Of a stretch of 64,000 bases of DNA, positions 3,668-64,000 are shown one piece after another (position 1 is the first letter of the stretch; every line of letters starts with the position of its first letter). A program made the translations under genes and the position numbers. The stretch is from an uncultured Staphylococcaceae bacterium (lineage in GTDB: Bacteria; Bacillota_I; Bacilli_A; RFN20; CAG-826), in assembly GCA_964497235.1 (NCBI GenBank), contig CAZCCJ010000001.1, positions 67,910 to 131,909 of the forward strand, in the 5' to 3' direction. Under the pieces are notes generated by a model. That model did no database searches, was not told the origin of the DNA, and saw only the letters and a list, made by a program, of their open reading frames with translations.

Positions 3668-5500
3668 TTAGGCTTTTTTGTCGGTGAAATCGGCATCGAC
3701 GACGTCATCGGCGTTTTCGTTGCCGCTTGCGCTTCCGGTGTTTCCGGCATTCGCCGCGCCGGCGGCTTGCTGTTGATATGCGGCAGCTTGGCTTGCGGCG
3801 TCTTCGAGACGTCCGACGATCTCACGTAGTTTGTTGATGTCGTCGCTTTGGATGGCGCCTTGGGCTTCGTCGCGAAGCTTCGTGAGCTGATCCTTTTGCT
3901 CTGCCGACATCGATTCGCCTTTTTCGACGAGGGTGCGGTTTATCTCGTCGACGTAGGTTTGGGCCTTGTTTTTGACTTCGATGTCGCCCTTCCTCTTTTC
4001 ATCGGCCTCTTTATTGGCCTCTGCGTCCTTGATCATGCGGTCGATGTCCTCTTTCGAAAGTCCGTTCGATCCGCTGATGGTGATGTCTTGCGATTTTTGG
4101 GTATCGAGGTCTTTGGCCGTGACTTTGACGATGCCGTTGACGTCGATTGAGAAGGTGACTTCGATTCTCGGTTGCCCTTTCATCGCCGGTTTGATGCCGG
4201 AGAGCTGGAAGTGGCCGAGAAGCTTGTTGTCGTGGGCCATTTGCCTTTCGCCTTGGTAAACCATGATGTCGACGGCCGGCTGATTGTCTTGTGCCGTGGA
4301 GAAGACTTGGCTCTTGGTGGTAGGAATCGTGGTGTTTCTCGGAATGAGAGGAGTCATGATTCCGCCTAAGGTTTCAATGCCCAAGGTAAGAGGAGTGACG
4401 TCGAGCAATACGACGTCTTTGACGTCTCCGGCGATGACGCCGCCTTGGATGGCGGCGCCGATTGAAACGGCTTCGTCTGGGTTGACAGAGAGGTTGATTT
4501 CGTGGCCGGTGACCTTCTTGACCATCTCTTGGACGGCCGGCATACGGATGGAGCCGCCGATCATAAGGATGTCGCCGAGTTCGTTATAGCTGAGCTTAGC
4601 GTCGGACATGGCTTTTTCCATCGGGATTTTGCAACGTTCGAGAAGATTTCTCGTCAAATCCTGGAATTTGGCGCGGGTGATCTTGCCTTCCCAGTTGATA
4701 GGTCCGTTCGCGCTCATGCCGATGAATGGGAGGGAGATGGTGGTCTCTAAGCTGCTCGACAATTCGATTTTGGCTTTTTCGGCCGCATCGAGGAAACGCT
4801 GCTTGGCCATTTTGTCGGTCAAATCGGCGCCGGTTTCCTGAAGGATTTGGGCGTGGATCCAATCCGCCAAGGCGTTGTCCCAATCGTCGCCTCCTAGGTG
4901 CGTGTCGCCGTTGGTCGAGAGGACTTGGAAGGTTCCATCGCCGATATCGAGGATGGAAACATCGAGTGTGCCGCCACCTAAGTCGAAGACGAGGACTTTC
5001 TCGCTCTTATTGTTCTCTAAGCCGTATGCAAGGCAGCTCGCCGTCGGTTCGTTGATGATGCGGACGACTTCGAGTCCGGCGATCGTGCCGGCGTCTTTGG
5101 TGGCTTGACGTTGCGCGTCGTTGAAATAAGCAGGGACGGTGATGACCGCTTTCGAGACCGGTTGCCCTAAGCTCTTTTCGGCATAGGACTTCATATAGGA
5201 TAAAACCTTTGAAGAGATCTCTTGCGGCGTGTAGTCCTTGTTAAGGCAATTGATGTGGAATTTTTCCGATGTGCCGATATAACGTTTGGCGCTGCGAACG
5301 GTGTCCGGATTCGTGATCATTTGGCGTTTCGCCGCGTTGCCGACGATTTCCTCGCCACTCCCCTTGAAAGCGACCACGCTTGGGGTGGTGTTAGTGCCTT
5401 CTGGGTTCGGGATGACCTTCACCTTGCCGTCCGCTTGAAGATAGCTGATGACGCTGTTGGTGGTACCTAAGTCGATACCTACGATGATTTCTTTTGCCAT
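3668..5500 (-). CDS. dnaK: Molecular chaperone DnaK (Hsp70)
   Basis: Shows Hsp70 signatures ([20 protein letters not shown]). The start is set at [12 protein letters not shown] (ATG 5500), with an AAGGAGG upstream. Confidence 0.97.
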
Positions 5501-57690: not shown

Positions 57691-58137
57691 TTAGCACCAG
57701 TGCGTGATTTTCCCGATGTTGACGTCGTTATATTGCATCGATATAAGTTTATTGATGGATATCTCAAACCCATAGTTCTCTATGGAATACGAATTGGAAT
57801 CGAACGGCTCGATGGGCTTAGGGTCTTTCGTCCCTTCCGATACGTCATAGCAACACGCTGGAGAATTAGAGTTAGAGAAAGATAGCCCGAAGACGATGTC
57901 GTAATTCAGGATAAAGGAGCTATTGTCCTTGAGCACGAATTCGTCATTCTCGCTTCGATAGACGTTATAGTAGATGAATTCATGGCCGTTTATCGTCGCT
58001 TTTTGCTCGCGTTCGACGGCCACATTCGGCAATGAAGCCGCATTAAAAACCACCTTGCCGCCATTCGTCGAAGACCCGCAGGAAGTAATTAAAGAGAGAA
58101 TCGATATGGATATGAATGCCAAAACCGCTCTTTTCAT
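57691..58137 (-). CDS. Small lipoprotein of unknown function
   Basis: Has a signal peptide with a lipobox (ILSLITS-C-GSS). 148 aa, ending in HWC. Confidence 0.7.
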   Translation of the reverse strand: MKRAVLAFISISILSLITSCGSSTNGGKVVFNAASLPNVAVEREQKATINGHEFIYYNVYRSENDEFVLKDNSSFILNYDIVFGLSFSNSNSPACCYDVSEGTKDPKPIEPFDSNSYSIENYGFEISINKLISMQYNDVNIGKITHWC

Positions 58138-58298: not shown

Positions 58299-60419
58299 AT
58301 GATGTTCATGAATAAGAAAAGCCTATTGTTAGTCTTAGCCGCGTCTTGTTTGCTCGTCTCTTGCGGAGACGCCGATCAAGAAAACAAAGGCGATAACGGC
58401 GGCGATAACGATTCCTCTAGCCTTCCATACGTCGATCCGAATCCTGATAGCGGCGACATCGTCACCGGCGACGCCGGCTTCAAACTCGTGATGTTCGGCG
58501 ATCTTTACCTCCATCAAATGCGTTCGATCTACGCCGTGCTCGACGATGGCGTCATCGGAAGCGTGACTTTCTCTAGCGACAACGAGGATATCATCGTTTG
58601 CTCGCCGGACGAAAACCGCCTTAACCAAGCATTGCTAAGAGCTAATGGTCTTGGAACCGCCACGATATCCGCTTATATCGAGGGACAAGAGGACAAGGTC
58701 TTAACGAAAACCATAACCGTCTCCTCTGGGACAGCGTTACCGGAAGAAACGTTCAACAAATTGACCGGAGCGATGAAGGTGAACCTGACCGAGAGCCGCT
58801 ACGACTATGACGAAAAACTCAGTCCAACCCTCTATGATTCCTATAACGTCACGACGATTTACGAGGAAAACGAGGATATCGCGTCCTACCCCTATCACAA
58901 CACCGACGCATACCAAATAAATTCGGTCAACATACAAACCGGCGTAAGCGATTATTCCCGTCTTTTCGTGAGGAACGGCACGCGTTTGGCCACCGAATAC
59001 ATCAGTTCCGATAACACCATCGTCAAACAGACCCAATACGACGATGAAGGCGAAGAATACGATTGGGTCAACAGCGCTTACGAAAACCCATTCAAATACG
59101 ATGAGGAAAGCGATGAAGCGCCTAACGTAGTCGCGACCGACTTCGAGACGTTCGACGGCGGCAAAACCTATCACTATGTAGGCGAAGGCATCTATTCCAC
59201 TTTCTATATCGCCAAATCCTTCACTCTCCGCAATAACTTCCCAGATGATTTCGTGATCACGGTGAACGGCGATGACATCGGTTTCCAGATCTTCACAGAT
59301 CCCGCTTCAGCGCTGGGCGAAGATGAAATGGGCGGCACAACCATAAGTGGCAAGTTCTCGGAAATCGGAACGGCGAAAGTCACTCACTTAGAGCCATATA
59401 AACACGAAAGCTACCATGACGCGATCGAATCGGCCCGTTCTAAGATGGCTAGTGCAAGAAACTACACCGCTTCTTATAGCTTCTCCGATTCCGATGGCAC
59501 GATGACCTACACTCACGTCTTCACCGAAGACACGATCGACGAGAAGATCGTCCAAGCCGACGGCACTATTTCCCATACTGGCGTCCATAAGACCGATACC
59601 GGCTATTTCACCTATGAATATGACGATTCCACCGGAGTTTTGACGAAGACGAAAGACTACACCGCCGATTTCTCCAGCGTCAATCGTTATCCTACCTTCG
59701 ACTTTGCGGTTGAGATACTGGGGCAAGGCTCAAAGGATGGCGAATACATCTCACGCGGCAATGAGACGCGTTTCTTCTATTCCTATTGCTGGTATTTGCC
59801 GAGGTTCCTAAATTACTACACCGTCTCCGATGACGTCGCCGTCACTCTGAAGGACGGCTATTTCGCCTCGATGTCGACCGAACTCGCCAGCAACGTCGAT
59901 AGCACCGAAGAACCGGCTTCCTTCGTTGGAAAATATTCTAACTTTGGAACCTCCGCCGTTTCATACGATTGGGACAACATCGTCCTTCCTACCGAACCGA
60001 CCAATTATCCGACCGAATTATTGGCCTCTCTAAAACAGTTCGGCGTTGATGAAGTGATACCGTATCTCTATCCTACGAATGTTGGATACGCCGACAACAA
60101 GGCCACTTGCATCAAAGATAAAAGTAACGATGGATATGCTTCCTATTGCTATTTCGAAACGAATAAATTCGAAACAGATGAATTACGCGACGCTTATATA
60201 GCCAGCTATAAGGAATTGCTCGTCAATAACGGTTGGACTCTAACGACCGAAGTGGACGATCACCTCGGATACGATTATTACATCAGTAACGATGGCAATT
60301 GGAAATTGTCTGTAGGAGCCTATAAGGCTTTCTCGACCGGCGCCGCATGGAAAAACGTCGTCTTCACTTTCAATAGCGCGACCGGGCAAATAGCGATCCC
60401 AGACGGATATCATTCGTAA
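58299..60419 (+). CDS. Large surface lipoprotein with an N-terminal Big_2-like Ig domain
   Basis: Has a lipobox (SCLLVS-C-GDA), a D/N/G/S-rich linker and a Big_2-like segment (VTFSSDNEDII...ANGLGTATISAYI). The remaining roughly 550 aa have no recognisable motif. The start could be any of three ATGs between 58299 and 58308. Confidence 0.75.
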   Translation: MMFMNKKSLLLVLAASCLLVSCGDADQENKGDNGGDNDSSSLPYVDPNPDSGDIVTGDAGFKLVMFGDLYLHQMRSIYAVLDDGVIGSVTFSSDNEDIIVCSPDENRLNQALLRANGLGTATISAYIEGQEDKVLTKTITVSSGTALPEETFNKLTGAMKVNLTESRYDYDEKLSPTLYDSYNVTTIYEENEDIASYPYHNTDAYQINSVNIQTGVSDYSRLFVRNGTRLATEYISSDNTIVKQTQYDDEGEEYDWVNSAYENPFKYDEESDEAPNVVATDFETFDGGKTYHYVGEGIYSTFYIAKSFTLRNNFPDDFVITVNGDDIGFQIFTDPASALGEDEMGGTTISGKFSEIGTAKVTHLEPYKHESYHDAIESARSKMASARNYTASYSFSDSDGTMTYTHVFTEDTIDEKIVQADGTISHTGVHKTDTGYFTYEYDDSTGVLTKTKDYTADFSSVNRYPTFDFAVEILGQGSKDGEYISRGNETRFFYSYCWYLPRFLNYYTVSDDVAVTLKDGYFASMSTELASNVDSTEEPASFVGKYSNFGTSAVSYDWDNIVLPTEPTNYPTELLASLKQFGVDEVIPYLYPTNVGYADNKATCIKDKSNDGYASYCYFETNKFETDELRDAYIASYKELLVNNGWTLTTEVDDHLGYDYYISNDGNWKLSVGAYKAFSTGAAWKNVVFTFNSATGQIAIPDGYHS

Positions 60420-60435
60420 TCCAGCTTTCATTAAG

Positions 60436-60464
60436 AAAAACCGGCGGTCCCCCGTCGGTTTTTT
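60436..60464. terminator. Bidirectional rho-independent terminator between convergent genes
   Basis: AAAAA-CCGGCGG-TCCC-CCGTCGG-TTTTTT, a 7-bp stem with one G-U pair. The A-run and T-run allow termination in both directions. Confidence 0.8.
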
Positions 60465-60483
60465 CATATAACAGCCACAACCT

Positions 60484-60807
60484 CTAAAGTTTGTCGTACT
60501 TCGTCGAAACGCCTTTTGCTTTGGAAACGGGATACTTTTTCTCCGTTTTGTCCATCTTGTCGTTCATTATCTCGATCGGATCGAGATCGAGCCTCATCGA
60601 CATCTGCAGACAATAATTCATGACGTCCGCGAGCTCTTCTTTGACAGCTTCGATATCGCAATCATCGTTCCATTGGAAGCATTCAAGAAGCTCGCCCGCT
60701 TCGATGGAGATGGATTTGGCGAGGTTGGAAGGCGAATGGAATTGGTCCCAATCCCTGGCTTTGTTGAATTCGTCGATTCTTTTCATCAATTTCTCTAATC
60801 TTTCCAT
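60484..60807 (-). CDS. MazG-like nucleoside-triphosphate pyrophosphohydrolase (small all-alpha, DCTPP1/YpjD-like type)
   Basis: 107 aa, with RDWDQFHSP.NLAKSISIEAGELLECFQW...EELADVMNYCL. This gives the EXXE(12-28)EXXD metal-binding pattern of the MazG superfamily. The start overlaps the upstream gene's end by 13 nt. Confidence 0.8.
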   Translation of the reverse strand: MERLEKLMKRIDEFNKARDWDQFHSPSNLAKSISIEAGELLECFQWNDDCDIEAVKEELADVMNYCLQMSMRLDLDPIEIMNDKMDKTEKKYPVSKAKGVSTKYDKL

Positions 60808-62531
60808 TTCTCGATGTATCTCCCCAAATAATCCCTTAAATTCCGGTTATACGCATAAACATAGCAGCCTTTGATGCCGCGCGTCATCATGACTTTGTAC
60901 GAATTTATTATGTATCTCTTAAGCGTTTCCTCATCCGTTCCGTTCTTGACGTTCTTATCGAAGAACTTTTCCTTGTCGATGACTATCTCGTCTCTTATCG
61001 GATCGTAATCTATCTCCCTTCCGAAGATTATGCCGACGTAATTCAAATCATAGCCTTGAAGGGTGTGGATGCAGCCGATTTCGTTGACCGCGTTCTTTGA
61101 GAGGATGAACTCCTCATTCGTCATGTTCCAAACGTAATGATGGCCGTCTATATCGATATCCGCCAAGCCATTTTTCAGGATGTAATCGTATCCGTCCTTG
61201 ATATAAGGCTTGCTCCGCCATCTCCAGGAATAGCCGGCTGCGTTGCGGCATAATCCGTATTTTTTGTCTAGTTCCCTTATCGCGTCGATCATCTTCGCCG
61301 CATCGTCGAAAATCTTGAAGTCGTAATTCTCGATTTCTTCTTTCTCGTGTTGCTCGCAATCGAAGATCCTATCGAGATAATCGGTGTATTCCTCACCGCC
61401 AAGGCACCTCATCTGGGTGGATAATTTCTTAGTAAGTACCGAAGAATCCGATAAAGCGTCGAAGAACTGCTCGTCCGTCAAGTCCGACCCCTTGACCGAT
61501 TGGTTCTTGTCATATACCAAGACGCGATAACGTGATTTCGCCACGATCATGTCGAGTTCCGTGGCCGTCATCGGATCGAGTCCGAGTTTCCTTGCGTTTT
61601 GGTCGAATGTTCCCATGAATGAAATGTTCTTTCTTCTCGCCAAGCGGTGCGCTTCATCGACCAAGAGAACGTCGAACTTATCCTCGCTTCTAAGGATGTC
61701 GAAAGGGCCGATCACCATCTCGCTCTTTAAGCCGTTGGCAGTGAGCCTAAAGACCTTTTTCATCGTCTTTCTTAACGAAGACATCGGGCAAATGTAGCCG
61801 ATTTTAAGCTTTTTGGACCCTTCGCCATGCTTTTTAAGATAATTCTGTATGAGCATCATAAGATGAAGGTATTCGCTCGTGTCAGTATCATCTAGTGAGT
61901 CATCGACATCGAATCTCGTGGCGTTAACGAGCTTATACATGAGGTTAGTGAGAACGATCGTTTTGCCAGTCCCCGCCCCGCCGTTTATGATGGCCGTGCC
62001 GTCTATATTCTTGCTAAGTTTTTCGACTATGTCCTCGATTATCGCGTTAGAGGCCGCGCTTTGCTCGGCAGTCAAAGTGTTATATGGCGAATATTTGAAT
62101 AGATCGGAGTTTCTGATGTCCTCCAAATCATTGACGACGATCTTCTTCTTTTTGAGTGCTCTCCAAATATCGTCGATTTTGTCTAGGTATTTCTTCCTTT
62201 GATAGTAATTATGCTTGCTCGATTGGCCGCCATTGCAATTGATGAGCTTATATTTTCCATCCGCTCCGCATAGTTGGATGAGCGATTGCTCGATGTCGAG
62301 TATCGCCGATTTATTGAATTCGTCGTCATAGATGACGTTTATGACTTTGAGTCCCTTCTTTTCGGGGCTTTTCAGATGTTGTTCGAAACGGACGACGGCG
62401 TTTTGCGTTTCGCCGATATACATCTTCTCATCGCTATTGATGAGATAGACGACCGGCCAATCCTCCGCTTTTTTGTTCTTCGAGAGCATATCTCGGCCCA
62501 GAGAGGAGAATTCGTATGATTCGATATTCAT
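60795..62531 (-). CDS. GIY-YIG nuclease domain fused to a DUF2075/Schlafen-group-III-type SF1 helicase-like ATPase
   Basis: N-terminus: VVYLI-x8-MYIGET...RFEQH...DIEQSL (GIY-YIG with conserved Arg/His/Glu). ATPase core: Walker A (INGGAGTGKT) and Walker B (DVLLVDEAHRL). C-terminus: SF1 motifs V/VI (IHTLQGYDLNYVGIIFG, MTRGIKGCYVY). Confidence 0.8.
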   Translation of the reverse strand: MNIESYEFSSLGRDMLSKNKKAEDWPVVYLINSDEKMYIGETQNAVVRFEQHLKSPEKKGLKVINVIYDDEFNKSAILDIEQSLIQLCGADGKYKLINCNGGQSSKHNYYQRKKYLDKIDDIWRALKKKKIVVNDLEDIRNSDLFKYSPYNTLTAEQSAASNAIIEDIVEKLSKNIDGTAIINGGAGTGKTIVLTNLMYKLVNATRFDVDDSLDDTDTSEYLHLMMLIQNYLKKHGEGSKKLKIGYICPMSSLRKTMKKVFRLTANGLKSEMVIGPFDILRSEDKFDVLLVDEAHRLARRKNISFMGTFDQNARKLGLDPMTATELDMIVAKSRYRVLVYDKNQSVKGSDLTDEQFFDALSDSSVLTKKLSTQMRCLGGEEYTDYLDRIFDCEQHEKEEIENYDFKIFDDAAKMIDAIRELDKKYGLCRNAAGYSWRWRSKPYIKDGYDYILKNGLADIDIDGHHYVWNMTNEEFILSKNAVNEIGCIHTLQGYDLNYVGIIFGREIDYDPIRDEIVIDKEKFFDKNVKNGTDEETLKRYIINSYKVMMTRGIKGCYVYAYNRNLRDYLGRYIEKWKD

Positions 62532-62538
62532 TCCTTGA

Positions 62539-62560
62539 TTATAACATATTTATAACATAT
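62539..62560 (-). repeat. Perfect tandem 11-nt direct repeat carrying extended -10 elements, immediately upstream of the GIY-YIG/DUF2075 gene
   Basis: The minus strand reads ATATGTTATAA-ATATGTTATAA-TCAAGGA-ATG. The proximal copy creates TGTTATAAT (an extended -10, TGnTATAAT) ending 6 nt before the ATG. Confidence 0.6.
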
Positions 62561-62584
62561 AGAGCAGATAAGCCACCATCTATC

Positions 62585-62610
62585 GAAAAAAGCGGCCTGA
62601 TAGACCGCTT
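62585..62610 (-). terminator. Rho-independent terminator after the collagen-repeat gene
   Basis: On the minus strand: AAGCGG-N9-CCGCTT followed by TTTT. It insulates the downstream cassette. Confidence 0.6.
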
Positions 62611-62627
62611 AACTCATACATCGCGCT

Positions 62628-64000
62628 TCAAACTATCTTCACGACCATCGATGGGCAGACGCCGTTGACGACGCTCGCATTTAGGGCGCTGCCCACTTGG
62701 CCCGTCGAGTGGATTTCATGGACCAAGTAGTTGCATTTTTTGTTGGCCGCCGATGGGGAGCGCGTCCAGTAGCCAGTATAGCCATCCGAAGCTTTGCTGA
62801 CACCTCTGCTGAAAGAGTAATCGCTTGGGGCACGTTGCCTAGCGCTATCAGTCGTCCTATCTTCGTCATCGAAACCGTAATCCGGATTGAGGAAATCCTG
62901 ATAGCTAAGGAAAAAGACCTTATCGGATGTGTTCGCCGTCGCCAACCAATTATCGGTGGTTTCTTTGGTCGTGGCCGCGCTATTATCGACATCAGTCGTC
63001 CTTATGCGTTTCCCAGAGCCATAGAAGGCAGAATTCAAGAATCCGTCGTTAAGCCATCTCCTTATCGTCGAATACATCCAATGCGCAGTGTAAGAGTCGG
63101 TGCCGTTATAGTCGTATTCTTTGGAATCCAAGGCCGCTTCGCTTATGACGGTATATAGGTTCCCCTCTTTCTTGAGGACATCCCAAACGATCGGTTCGCA
63201 TTTGAACCACGGCTCTTCTTCTAGCGTCGCATCGGCGCCATCGGAATAGGTGTAAGCGTCTGAGGAGTCGTATAAATAGGACTCGGACTTCATATAATAG
63301 GTATCGCCTAGCAAATACCAGCCATTCGATTCCGCTTTCGCTAGCGCATTGAGCGCGTCTATCGTAGTGGCATCCGATACATGCGTTTGAGGATATATAC
63401 CATAGGTGAAGCGCTTGTCGTCTAAGAAATTAACCACTTCCGTAGGATCGATCTCATAGTCGGCGTAAATGTCTAGGTCATTAGTTATGGTTGAGCCGCT
63501 AAAAGACCAATTGACGTTGGCTTTGCCTTCCTTGGTGTACCAAGCGTTCACGATATAGCCGACCGTATCGTCGTCTTCCGGCATCGTGACCTTTGACCCG
63601 TCTAGGACCGTCACCGTCTTGACGATTTTATCGTCCAAACGGAAATTGACCGTATGGGTTTCGACGCTTTTGAGGAATCCGGCGTCTTTTTCCGTCCCAT
63701 CGCTCATTACGCAGATAAGATGGCCTTGGTCGTTTATATAGGTGCTAGTGATCGAGACGCCGGTATCGCCTTTCGCACCGGTAGCACCGGTGTTCCCCTT
63801 ATCACCCTTGTCGCCTTTGTCCCCTTTATCGCCTTTTTCGCCGTTGGAGCCGTTTGCGCCATTAGTCCCATCGCTTCCTTTGAGATTGGAAACGACAGCC
63901 CACGAGTCGGCGCCTTTTTGCCATAAGTCACCAGTCTCGGTATTGAGATAGAGGTCTCCCGTCACGCCTAAGTCGCCGCTCGGATCGGTGGTTCCGGTGT
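62628..64000 (-). CDS. Collagen-triple-helix-repeat surface protein with a Listeria-Bacteroides repeat and a DUF6273-like C-terminal domain (N-terminus outside the window)
   Basis: The reading frame stays open to the window end. The track start is only an internal GTG. It contains 13 G-X-Y triplets (GSDGTNGANGSNGEKGDKGDKGDKGDKGNTGATGAKGDTG). These are followed by a Flg_new-type repeat (HTVNFRLDD...GYIVNAWYTKEG...LDIYADY). A C-terminal module follows with WDVLKKEG..., IRRWLNDGFLNSAF, DKVFFLSYQD and GYWTRSPS, the DUF6273 pattern. Confidence 0.8.
   Translation of the reverse strand, partial: TGTTDPSGDLGVTGDLYLNTETGDLWQKGADSWAVVSNLKGSDGTNGANGSNGEKGDKGDKGDKGDKGNTGATGAKGDTGVSITSTYINDQGHLICVMSDGTEKDAGFLKSVETHTVNFRLDDKIVKTVTVLDGSKVTMPEDDDTVGYIVNAWYTKEGKANVNWSFSGSTITNDLDIYADYEIDPTEVVNFLDDKRFTYGIYPQTHVSDATTIDALNALAKAESNGWYLLGDTYYMKSESYLYDSSDAYTYSDGADATLEEEPWFKCEPIVWDVLKKEGNLYTVISEAALDSKEYDYNGTDSYTAHWMYSTIRRWLNDGFLNSAFYGSGKRIRTTDVDNSAATTKETTDNWLATANTSDKVFFLSYQDFLNPDYGFDDEDRTTDSARQRAPSDYSFSRGVSKASDGYTGYWTRSPSAANKKCNYLVHEIHSTGQVGSALNASVVNGVCPSMVVKIV
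63759..63878 (-). repeat. Collagen-like G-X-Y coding repeat (including 4x GDK)
   Basis: Directly visible as periodic ggN/ccN triplets. The codons are not identical between units. Confidence 0.85.

Follow-up and report, generated by a model that had tools for sequence, protein, structure and literature searches.

Why does a gene for a nuclease-helicase run, in overlap, into a gene for a small nucleotide pyrophosphohydrolase? The question is raised by a two-gene cassette near one end of a stretch of 64,000 nucleotides (nt), referred to below as the window, from an uncultured Staphylococcaceae bacterium (GTDB lineage Bacteria; Bacillota_I; Bacilli_A; RFN20; CAG-826), which covers positions 67,910 to 131,909 of contig CAZCCJ010000001.1 in the GenBank assembly GCA_964497235.1. 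Gene A of the cassette encodes the nuclease-helicase and gene B the pyrophosphohydrolase, and they are placed in the window, together with the two domains of A, as follows.

60795..62531, minus strand: gene A, 578 amino acids (aa), GIY-YIG nuclease plus DUF2075 (Schlafen group III type) superfamily 1B (SF1B) helicase
62232..62459, minus strand: GIY-YIG nuclease domain of A, about residues 25-100, assigned from a PF01541 match below the cut-off and from invariant columns
60807..62084, minus strand: SF1B ATPase/helicase core of A, about residues 150-575, assigned from PF09848, invariant motifs and structural matches
60484..60807, minus strand: gene B, 107 aa, DCTPP1/RS21-C6-type MazG-like all-alpha nucleoside triphosphate (NTP) pyrophosphohydrolase

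The end of gene A and the start of gene B have 13 nt in common (60795-60807), and the open reading frames (ORFs), this overlap and the motifs quoted for them in an earlier sequence-only reading of the same DNA were all found as described there. Considering the genes that surround the homologues of the pair, which point to a role in defence, we lean towards regarding the cassette as a horizontally mobile two-gene defence module of the nuclease-helicase (Nhi-like, DUF2075) kind.

Linkage and spread of the two genes

A profile of A was searched against GTDB contigs representing one genome per species, giving at least 521 relatives, and 80 loci were fetched for neighbourhood work. A B homologue lies within 150 nt of A in 62 of the 80, and the arrangements are the following.

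32 loci: B downstream of A on the same strand (order A then B)
25 loci: B upstream of A on the same strand (order B then A)
5 loci: B beside A on the opposite strand
7 loci: B within 2 kb of A, mostly with one inserted gene
5 loci, all Methanomassiliicoccales: B absent despite room for it
6 loci: contig too short to place B

Beyond the 69 linked loci there is one further B-like match (L055) among about 680 other neighbouring genes, and adjacency in 62 of 80 loci against this background is far beyond chance, which bears out the earlier proposal that the two genes are a unit. Moreover, the order of A and B flips at least six times along an ordering of A by the unweighted pair group method with arithmetic mean (UPGMA), and the pairwise distances of A and of B correlate (Mantel r=0.58, a value that none of 2000 permutations reached). 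Clustering of all the neighbours of the 80 loci revealed no third conserved gene, and the HNH, S-adenosylmethionine (SAM)-methyltransferase, NUDIX and mREase_IV neighbours are each found in merely 5-8 of the 80. Even at 31% identity the pair is retained, on a Bacillus cereus megaplasmid (plasmid pA), where a PF12643 'nucleotide pyrophosphohydrolase' gene (5e-23) lies directly upstream of the GIY-YIG-DUF2075 gene, with HNH, NUDIX, zeta-toxin and SocA antitoxin genes nearby. A and B thus form a tightly linked, repeatedly re-created and co-evolving module. No other NTP hydrolase standing in for B is evident in the ORF lists of the B-less archaeal loci.

The hosts of A homologues comprise Mollicutes-like and clostridial Firmicutes, Bacteroidales, Fibrobacter, Spirochaetaceae, Saccharibacteria and Methanomassiliicoccales, and the gut or rumen is the habitat of nearly all the organisms among the 80 loci. 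The window's A shows 51-54% identity to proteins from archaea, Spirochaetaceae and Bacteroidales, compared with 42-46% to proteins from Lachnospiraceae and other clostridial Firmicutes; its greater closeness to the former indicates horizontal transfer. In addition, the gene neighbourhoods of A-B differ between loci. The A family is nearly absent from phages (4 weak matches in 50,697 phage records, and 3 in the 2.9 million viral contigs of IMG/VR), and a phage or prophage replication module was rejected because of this near-absence and of the cellular genes that flank the cassette in the window.

The B family is very large and more conserved than the A family, its best 120 matches being 76-98% identical. 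Eight close B homologues were sampled, six of them picked by size of contig and one (P0237) as a DpnD fusion. In four of the eight, the B homologue (79-82% identical) is linked to DUF2075 genes that are not of the GIY-YIG type, as listed here.

P0144: a 624-aa DUF2075 protein and a 742-aa PDC-S41 protein beside the B homologue
P0237: a 493-aa Nhi/AbiO match, then a second DUF2075 ORF, then a DpnD-PcfM-MazG fusion
P0128: a 618-aa DUF2075 protein with HNH_2 and two C5 methyltransferases
P0186: a 628-aa DUF2075 protein, a DpnD-PcfM minigene, B, HNH_4, a SAM-methyltransferase and another DUF2075 protein, with a GmrSD_N-HNH protein adjoining

Because B also partners DUF2075 genes of non-GIY-YIG type, what the MazG-like enzyme is coupled to is the family of Schlafen-type helicases as a whole; the link to the DUF2075 helicase that the sequence-only reading had seen therefore stands, but its restriction to the GIY-YIG fusion does not. 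The 493-aa protein of P0237 gives full-length matches to the PADLOC models of Nhi (1.5e-123, 411 bits) and AbiO (6.4e-128, 425 bits), so that an Nhi/AbiO-family gene is situated two genes upstream of a 79%-identical B homologue, with one DUF2075 ORF between them.

MazG-like proteins also occur as a 166-aa fusion with DpnD-PcfM (PF14207) in P0199, P0204, P0218 and P0235-P0237 and at 5001-5501 of L090, and in L099 (3331-3824) a separate 55-aa DpnD-PcfM gene precedes the MazG-like gene and is not fused to it. Fused or separate, the MazG-like genes linked to DpnD-PcfM come after a DUF2075 gene. The methyl-dependent DpnI has DpnD, an uncharacterised protein, as its partner. Some further loci show variant arrangements of the pair itself. 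A radical-SAM protein with a DprA-like C-terminal region is inserted between A and B in L020 (7747-9045), and a Hypoth_Ymh-domain protein in L076 (4840-5970), where a C5 methyltransferase and an AAA ATPase pair flank the module. In L015 (4369-8358) the MazG-like gene is followed by a split second DUF2075 gene and then by gene A. Gene A of the archaeal locus L070 (5866-9600), broken into two ORFs, is a probable pseudogene, and a second, non-GIY-YIG DUF2075 paralogue (628 aa) comes after it, beside CRISPR-Cas-like genes.

The two proteins and their relation to known systems

Gene A matches PF09848 (SLFN-g3_helicase/DUF2075) with E=1.6e-60 and 205.7 bits (cut-off 24) over residues 180-561, which takes in positions 4-353 of the 354 of the profile. 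Its helicase motifs are Walker A GGAGTGKT (184-191), DEAH (292-295), Q373/R375, HTLQG (489-493) and R551-G552, and residues G184, G187, T188, T191, D292, E293, H295, R296, Q373, R375 and R551 are invariant in the A family. The AlphaFold2 model of A has a predicted local distance difference test (pLDDT) score of 85.8 and a predicted template modelling (pTM) score of 0.76, and when it was compared with the PDB by Foldseek the best matches were Upf1, human SLFN11, Sen1, RecD/RecD2, nsp13, Dda and Pif1, with SLFN11 in second place (E=2.6e-8). These matches identify A as an SF1B motor, and the Walker A, DEAH (Walker B) and arginine-finger motifs and the two RecA domains of such a protein are all there. 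They came by way of the predicted structure, since a profile of A found no match at E<=0.01 among PDB sequences.

In the N-terminal domain, the GIY-YIG beta-beta-alpha-beta-alpha core is modelled at pLDDT >90, and Y29, Y38, G40, R48, H52, E81 and N98 are invariant in 83 sequences, E41 being an invariant position as well. By analogy, Y29, Y38, R48, H52, E81 and N98 are putative catalytic residues of the GIY-YIG type, which has two Tyr (of the GIY and YIG motifs), an Arg, a His or Tyr, a Glu and an Asn. By our count, a precomputed PF01541 match is present in 79 of the 120 closest homologues, and together with the invariant residues this makes the GIY-YIG assignment hold at the level of the family. 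Beyond the GIY-YIG and helicase parts, no further domain is recognisable in A from the model and its Foldseek matches. A homing endonuclease was considered for the GIY-YIG domain and rejected, as a full helicase is fused to it and there is no intron or intein context.

Gene B matches PF12643 (MazG-like) with E=2e-17 and 63.7 bits (cut-off 27), and with it the domain calls of the sequence-only reading were upheld for both proteins. Its metal ligands are E36 and E39 (EXXE) and E58 and D61 (EXXD), and the catalytic and pocket residues, including these four, are invariant in 67 homologues. Compared with the PDB, B aligns over its full length to an archaeal pyrophosphatase (4qgp, 1e-18) and to mouse and human DCTPP1 (6sqw, 2a3q; 6e-16), with which it has the motifs RDWxQFHxPxNL, ExxE, FQW and EELxD in common. 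At 107 aa it amounts to a minimal catalytic domain, to which neither a sensor nor a regulatory part is added. Compared with DCTPP1/RS21-C6 and 4qgp, B is a minimal prokaryotic form that lies in an operon with a nuclease-helicase. DCTPP1-type enzymes prefer 5-modified dCTP, and 5-methyl-dCTP is hydrolysed by DCTPP1, NudG and MutT2.

Against PADLOC-DB v2.0.0, B has no match and A has only partial ones, to Nhi, AbiO, PDC-S14 and PDC-S41; the PDC-S14 models cover residues 18-144 of A, which is the N-terminal domain, and PDC-S41 the C-terminal part. The NCBIfam scan of the cassette proteins gave merely weak matches without meaning, and the PHROGs labels are the generic 'DNA helicase' and 'pyrophosphatase'. 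A and B together fit no single multi-gene system in PADLOC-DB v2.0.0, and no description of the A-B pair was found in the searchable literature (an END-nuclease preprint is unrelated), in agreement with the earlier expectation that this composition belongs to no named system.

The closest comparison is with Nhi (SERP2475 of Staphylococcus epidermidis), AbiO and the 'Nhi-like' protein of Millman et al. 2022, anti-phage proteins in defence islands which, like A, combine an N-terminal nuclease with a DUF2075 SF1B helicase. The nuclease of Nhi and AbiO is of the PD-(D/E)XK type, whereas that of A is GIY-YIG, and the matches of A to the PADLOC models of the two are confined to the P-loop region (Nhi residues 119-203, 39 bits; AbiO 142-204). 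A thus lies outside the Nhi/AbiO family, though its architecture is analogous. In the paper on Nhi, moreover, a single-gene system is described and no MazG or other pyrophosphohydrolase partner is mentioned. The pair would then be a nuclease-helicase defence in which the nuclease module is new and the accessory enzyme had escaped notice. With the group III Schlafens (SLFN5, SLFN11 and SLFN13), which have antiviral or replication-stress roles, A has a helicase domain of the same family, PF09848, in common and only that domain; in place of the Schlafen core/AlbA_2 RNase domain it has the GIY-YIG N-terminus and a dedicated pyrophosphohydrolase partner. The kinship to Schlafens that had been read from the sequence is accordingly real for the helicase and extends to nothing beyond it.

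A different kind of likeness is offered by the SauUSI-type enzymes with a NUDIX protein (mREase_IV and PDC-S07), which like A-B unite a nuclease-helicase with a small cytidine-type (d)NTP pyrophosphohydrolase, although the nucleases, the helicase superfamilies and the hydrolase folds are all unrelated. SauUSI has a known reader domain for modified cytosine, and A has no recognisable one. In the comparison with type IV restriction, readers are present merely in neighbouring genes of some loci, and the conserved unit includes no cognate protective methyltransferase, as only A and B are kept across the 80 loci.

Gene neighbourhoods and the possible role of the pair

The recurrent neighbours of A-B, each found in 3-11 loci, are a SauUSI-like PLD, superfamily 2 (SF2) and DUF3427 enzyme (mREase_IV, 1.9e-221) and a NUDIX protein (PDC-S07, 2.6e-48), and furthermore SoFic, an AAA_14 and DUF4143 protein (PDC-S01), PDC-S53, NERD, an HNH_4 protein, a small SAM-methyltransferase and C5 DNA methyltransferases. 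Others according to a PADLOC census are Cas3, DRT and GajB. Archaeal copies of A adjoin CRISPR-Cas-like gene clusters, as read from their ORFs with no hidden Markov model (HMM) test, and a Paenibacillus copy adjoins an MrcB_N-HNH protein. At a threshold of 1e-10 the census gave 223 family matches for 132 immediate neighbours (1.7 families per protein), compared with 10 family matches for 35 housekeeping genes of the window at the same threshold (0.29 per protein), a ratio of about six-fold which is semi-quantitative only. Strong matches were obtained even for housekeeping genes of the window (typeIV_DinG 1.2e-113, SspH 2e-55, LmuA and RTasMBL, with a metallo-beta-lactamase match among those of the control), so raw PADLOC HMM matches overstate the content of defence genes. 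Because the census also contains cross-matches, only the per-protein ratio and the identity of the full-length matches are usable. The defence-island context that the sequence-only reading had proposed to look for is seen around many homologous loci, but the window's own cassette is not in an island.

Six loci (L011, L012, L028, L039, L064 and L069) have, directly beside A-B and pointing the same way, the gene of a SauUSI-like type IV enzyme and then a NUDIX gene, and the stop of one gene often overlaps the start of the next. The four-gene run at 2333-7722 of L028, for instance, encodes a PLD, SF2 and DUF3427 enzyme, a NUDIX protein (PDC-S07), the MazG-like protein and the GIY-YIG-DUF2075 protein. 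SauUSI cuts DNA that contains 5-methylcytosine or 5-hydroxymethylcytosine. The best PDB relatives of the NUDIX neighbour are a putative CTP pyrophosphohydrolase (3gwy, 4e-28), MutT, MutT2 and the E. coli CTP pyrophosphohydrolase NudG. Both nuclease-helicases of such a four-gene run are therefore paired with a small (d)NTP pyrophosphohydrolase of their own, and, as far as homology can tell, two unrelated hydrolase folds, both related to (d)CTP enzymes, are found beside two unrelated nuclease-helicases. DUF2075 genes beside DUF3427 enzymes, as well as GIY-YIG-DUF2075 fusions, were already noted by Lutz et al. 2019.

Directly after the A-B pair, or after a DUF2075-B pair, there is often an HNH_4 protein of 320-370 aa (8043-9568 of L011, 6364-7898 of L013, 3841-5365 of L099 and 8135-9244 of L052), the N-terminal domain of which has no Pfam match. 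It is often accompanied by a small class-I SAM methyltransferase (about 185 aa), which is not recognisable as a DNA methyltransferase. The two may, with the pair, make up an extended four-gene form of the module.

From these contexts and homologies we infer a function in defence, substrates for A and B, and a logic that would couple the two. A would be the effector: its SF1B motor would load onto nucleic acid, most likely DNA that is invading or being replicated, and move along it, and the GIY-YIG domain at its N-terminus would cut that DNA. B would be an active DCTPP1-like house-cleaner that converts non-canonical deoxynucleoside triphosphates (dNTPs), most likely 5-modified dCTP, to the monophosphate (dNMP) and pyrophosphate (PPi). 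The role of B that we favour is self-protection, in which modified nucleotides from degraded or methylated DNA would be kept out of the host chromosome; salvaged modified nucleotides, to which the host's methylated DNA may also contribute, would otherwise return to random sites in the chromosome and make it a target of resident nucleases. Alternatively, B might starve phages that build their DNA from modified dCTP. That a logic of modified dCTP couples A and B in this manner is a tentative suggestion, which we would not put as high as the defence role itself. The sequence-only reading had left B to remove canonical or phage-type dNTPs or to detoxify the cell; the housekeeping copies of B, about 80% identical, favour removal of non-canonical dNTPs, or detoxification, over depletion of canonical ones.

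Several observations weigh against a mobile defence module. The role in defence is argued by guilt by association, the PADLOC census of neighbours is crude, and its housekeeping control also gives matches. The cassette of the window and its 87%-identical counterpart L001 sit by housekeeping genes in a syntenic arrangement, and there is no defence island around them. Gene A of the window scores 20.7 bits against PF01541 (residues 28-88), under the curated cut-off of 22.6, and no modified-base reader domain is recognisable in A by Pfam, in the AlphaFold2 model or among its Foldseek matches. A occurs without B in the five archaeal loci and in the Paenibacillus locus. Finally, four of the eight sampled close B homologues are in housekeeping contexts without any DUF2075 gene, the stand-alone copies, about 80% identical, adjoining NAD synthase, HU/DnaD/Nth or an HD hydrolase; since half of the sample is so placed, B need not be specialised.

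The last of these contexts, and the position of the window's cassette, which is flanked by core genes and syntenic in a related species, would suit a system of genome maintenance and nucleotide surveillance, in which B cleans the dNTP pool and A removes damaged or modified nucleotides, or the structures that result from them, from the cell's own DNA. GIY-YIG nucleases do include the repair enzymes UvrC and Slx1, and DCTPP1 and the MutT-type enzymes are classical house-cleaners. We nevertheless consider this unlikely, because the distribution of the pair is patchy and crosses domains of life, with similarities of A that are incongruent with taxonomy, because the neighbourhoods vary and contain no conserved repair partner, because the module recurs beside restriction, Fic, CRISPR-Cas and abortive-infection-type genes, and because its DUF2075 relatives Nhi and AbiO are anti-phage.

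Even less probable, in our estimate, is a toxin-antitoxin or abortive-infection system, in which a toxic A would be held in check by B, through binding or through removal of an activating nucleotide, until infection frees A and the cell dies or arrests. The overlap of the genes, which are probably translationally coupled, the co-variation of the distances of A and B, the classing of the relative AbiO as an abortive-infection gene, and the zeta toxin and SocA antitoxin genes near the pair on the B. cereus plasmid are in line with such a system. Compared with type II toxin-antitoxin systems, however, the pair lacks both obligate co-occurrence and a fixed order, as B is missing beside A from at least five archaeal loci with enough room for it and from Paenibacillus, and the varying order and strand are unusual for antitoxin-first autoregulated operons. 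Furthermore, the catalytic residues of B are all invariant and B has hardly diverged from its housekeeping copies, which argues that B does ordinary chemistry and is not a neutralising binder. It is more doubtful still, and in our view very improbable, that B is the primary effector and depletes canonical dCTP or dNTPs upon infection in the manner of dCTP deaminases and dGTPases, with A as a sensor or second hit. Nucleotide depletion is an established defence and B belongs to a dCTP-hydrolysing family, but B is a minimal domain with no sensor or regulatory extension, its near-identical copies are in housekeeping contexts, where constitutive depletion of canonical dNTPs would be harmful, and the preference of DCTPP1-type enzymes is for 5-modified dCTP.

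If the pair is a mobile defence module, as we favour, its importance lies in the partner, because the nuclease-helicase defence proteins of the DUF2075/Schlafen kind have so far been treated as single-gene systems. A conserved and, by its residues, catalytically intact sanitising partner would add a layer to them, which either disposes of the nucleotides that restriction leaves behind or attacks dNTP pools specific to phages, and would explain the two unrelated folds of cytidine-nucleotide pyrophosphohydrolases beside two unrelated nuclease-helicases. One could speculate, with some reserve, that MazG-like and NUDIX CTP-pyrophosphohydrolase-like enzymes are general, unrecognised partners of nuclease-helicase effectors (DUF2075 proteins including Nhi/AbiO, and SauUSI-type enzymes), tying DNA-degrading immunity to a policing of the dNTP pool for modified cytosine. 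Were this partnership general, it would prevent self-targeting after the recycling of modified DNA, or starve phages that use modified dCTP, and it would be a prokaryotic counterpart of the SLFN11/SAMHD1/DCTPP1 axis of animals. The pair links bacterial immunity to the biology of animal Schlafens and DCTPP1, and with two genes in 2.1 kb it is a cheap system for asking how the carriers of modification-dependent or indiscriminate nucleases escape autoimmunity. It could also be added to the defence-finder tools, being common in human and ruminant gut microbes.

Setting of the cassette in the window

Three signals lie around the two genes in the window.

62590..62610, minus strand: intrinsic terminator hairpin and U-tract of the upstream DUF6273/collagen-repeat gene, from a terminator scan and folding
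62538..62546, minus strand: extended -10 element TGTTATAAT, found by eye, with its 3' end 6 nt before the ATG of gene A
60435..60464, both strands: terminator hairpin acting in both directions, placed between gene B and the convergent gene for a 706-aa lipoprotein

The hairpin at 62590-62610 folds with -19.3 kcal/mol (z -3.8; 0 of 200 shuffles fold as well); it is the DUF6273 gene's own terminator and shields the cassette from read-through. That at 60435-60464 is strong on the plus strand (-18.1 kcal/mol, z -5.7), where it serves the lipoprotein gene; on the minus strand, that of the cassette, it is weak (about -13.5 kcal/mol, z -1.2) and is followed by UUUUUCUU. Both hairpins by which the sequence-only reading had bracketed the cassette therefore exist, but they belong to the neighbours, and the downstream one does little on the strand that matters here. 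The claim of an own promoter came out mixed as well: a sigma-70 consensus scan, for which a -35 box was required, found no promoter upstream of gene A, but two tandem -10-like boxes, TGTTATAAA and the extended TGTTATAAT, lie directly before its ATG (62529-62560, minus strand). As AAGGA abuts the ATG, there is no usable Shine-Dalgarno spacing for gene A, and from this placement and the position of the -10 element its transcript is probably leaderless.

On one flank of the cassette is a housekeeping block (DegV, RimP, NusA, IF2 and RbfA), with the dnaK operon and others further upstream, and on the other an accessory stretch with the DUF6273 protein, small unknown genes, a transposase and a PDC-S01-type ATPase. 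The last two are found on the same contig just past the end of the window (in L083, an rve-family transposase at 3919-4704 and an AAA_14 and DUF4143 ATPase of PDC-S01 type at 798-2126), which shows that the cassette borders an accessory region. Its supposed accessory location thus applies to one side, but the cassette stands at the edge of a housekeeping block and is syntenic in a related species. The housekeeping genes of positions 1-57600 include those for HrcA, GrpE, DnaK, DnaJ, LepA, AlaRS, FtsK, NusA, IF2, TruB and RNase PH.

Between this part and the cassette are two lipoprotein-like ORFs (58299-60419, plus strand, 706 aa; 57691-58137, minus strand, 148 aa), neither of which has a Pfam match and both of which have a signal peptide that ends in Cys; their counterparts in L001 are 78% and 68% identical, respectively. 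On the other side, a surface-type protein (62628-64000, minus strand) runs past the end of the window and is 524 aa long in L083, with collagen-like GxK/GxT repeats, a Listeria-Bacteroides repeat (Flg_new) and the C-terminal DUF6273. Stand-alone MazG-like genes of related genomes (L098 and L100) are likewise flanked by DUF6273 proteins.

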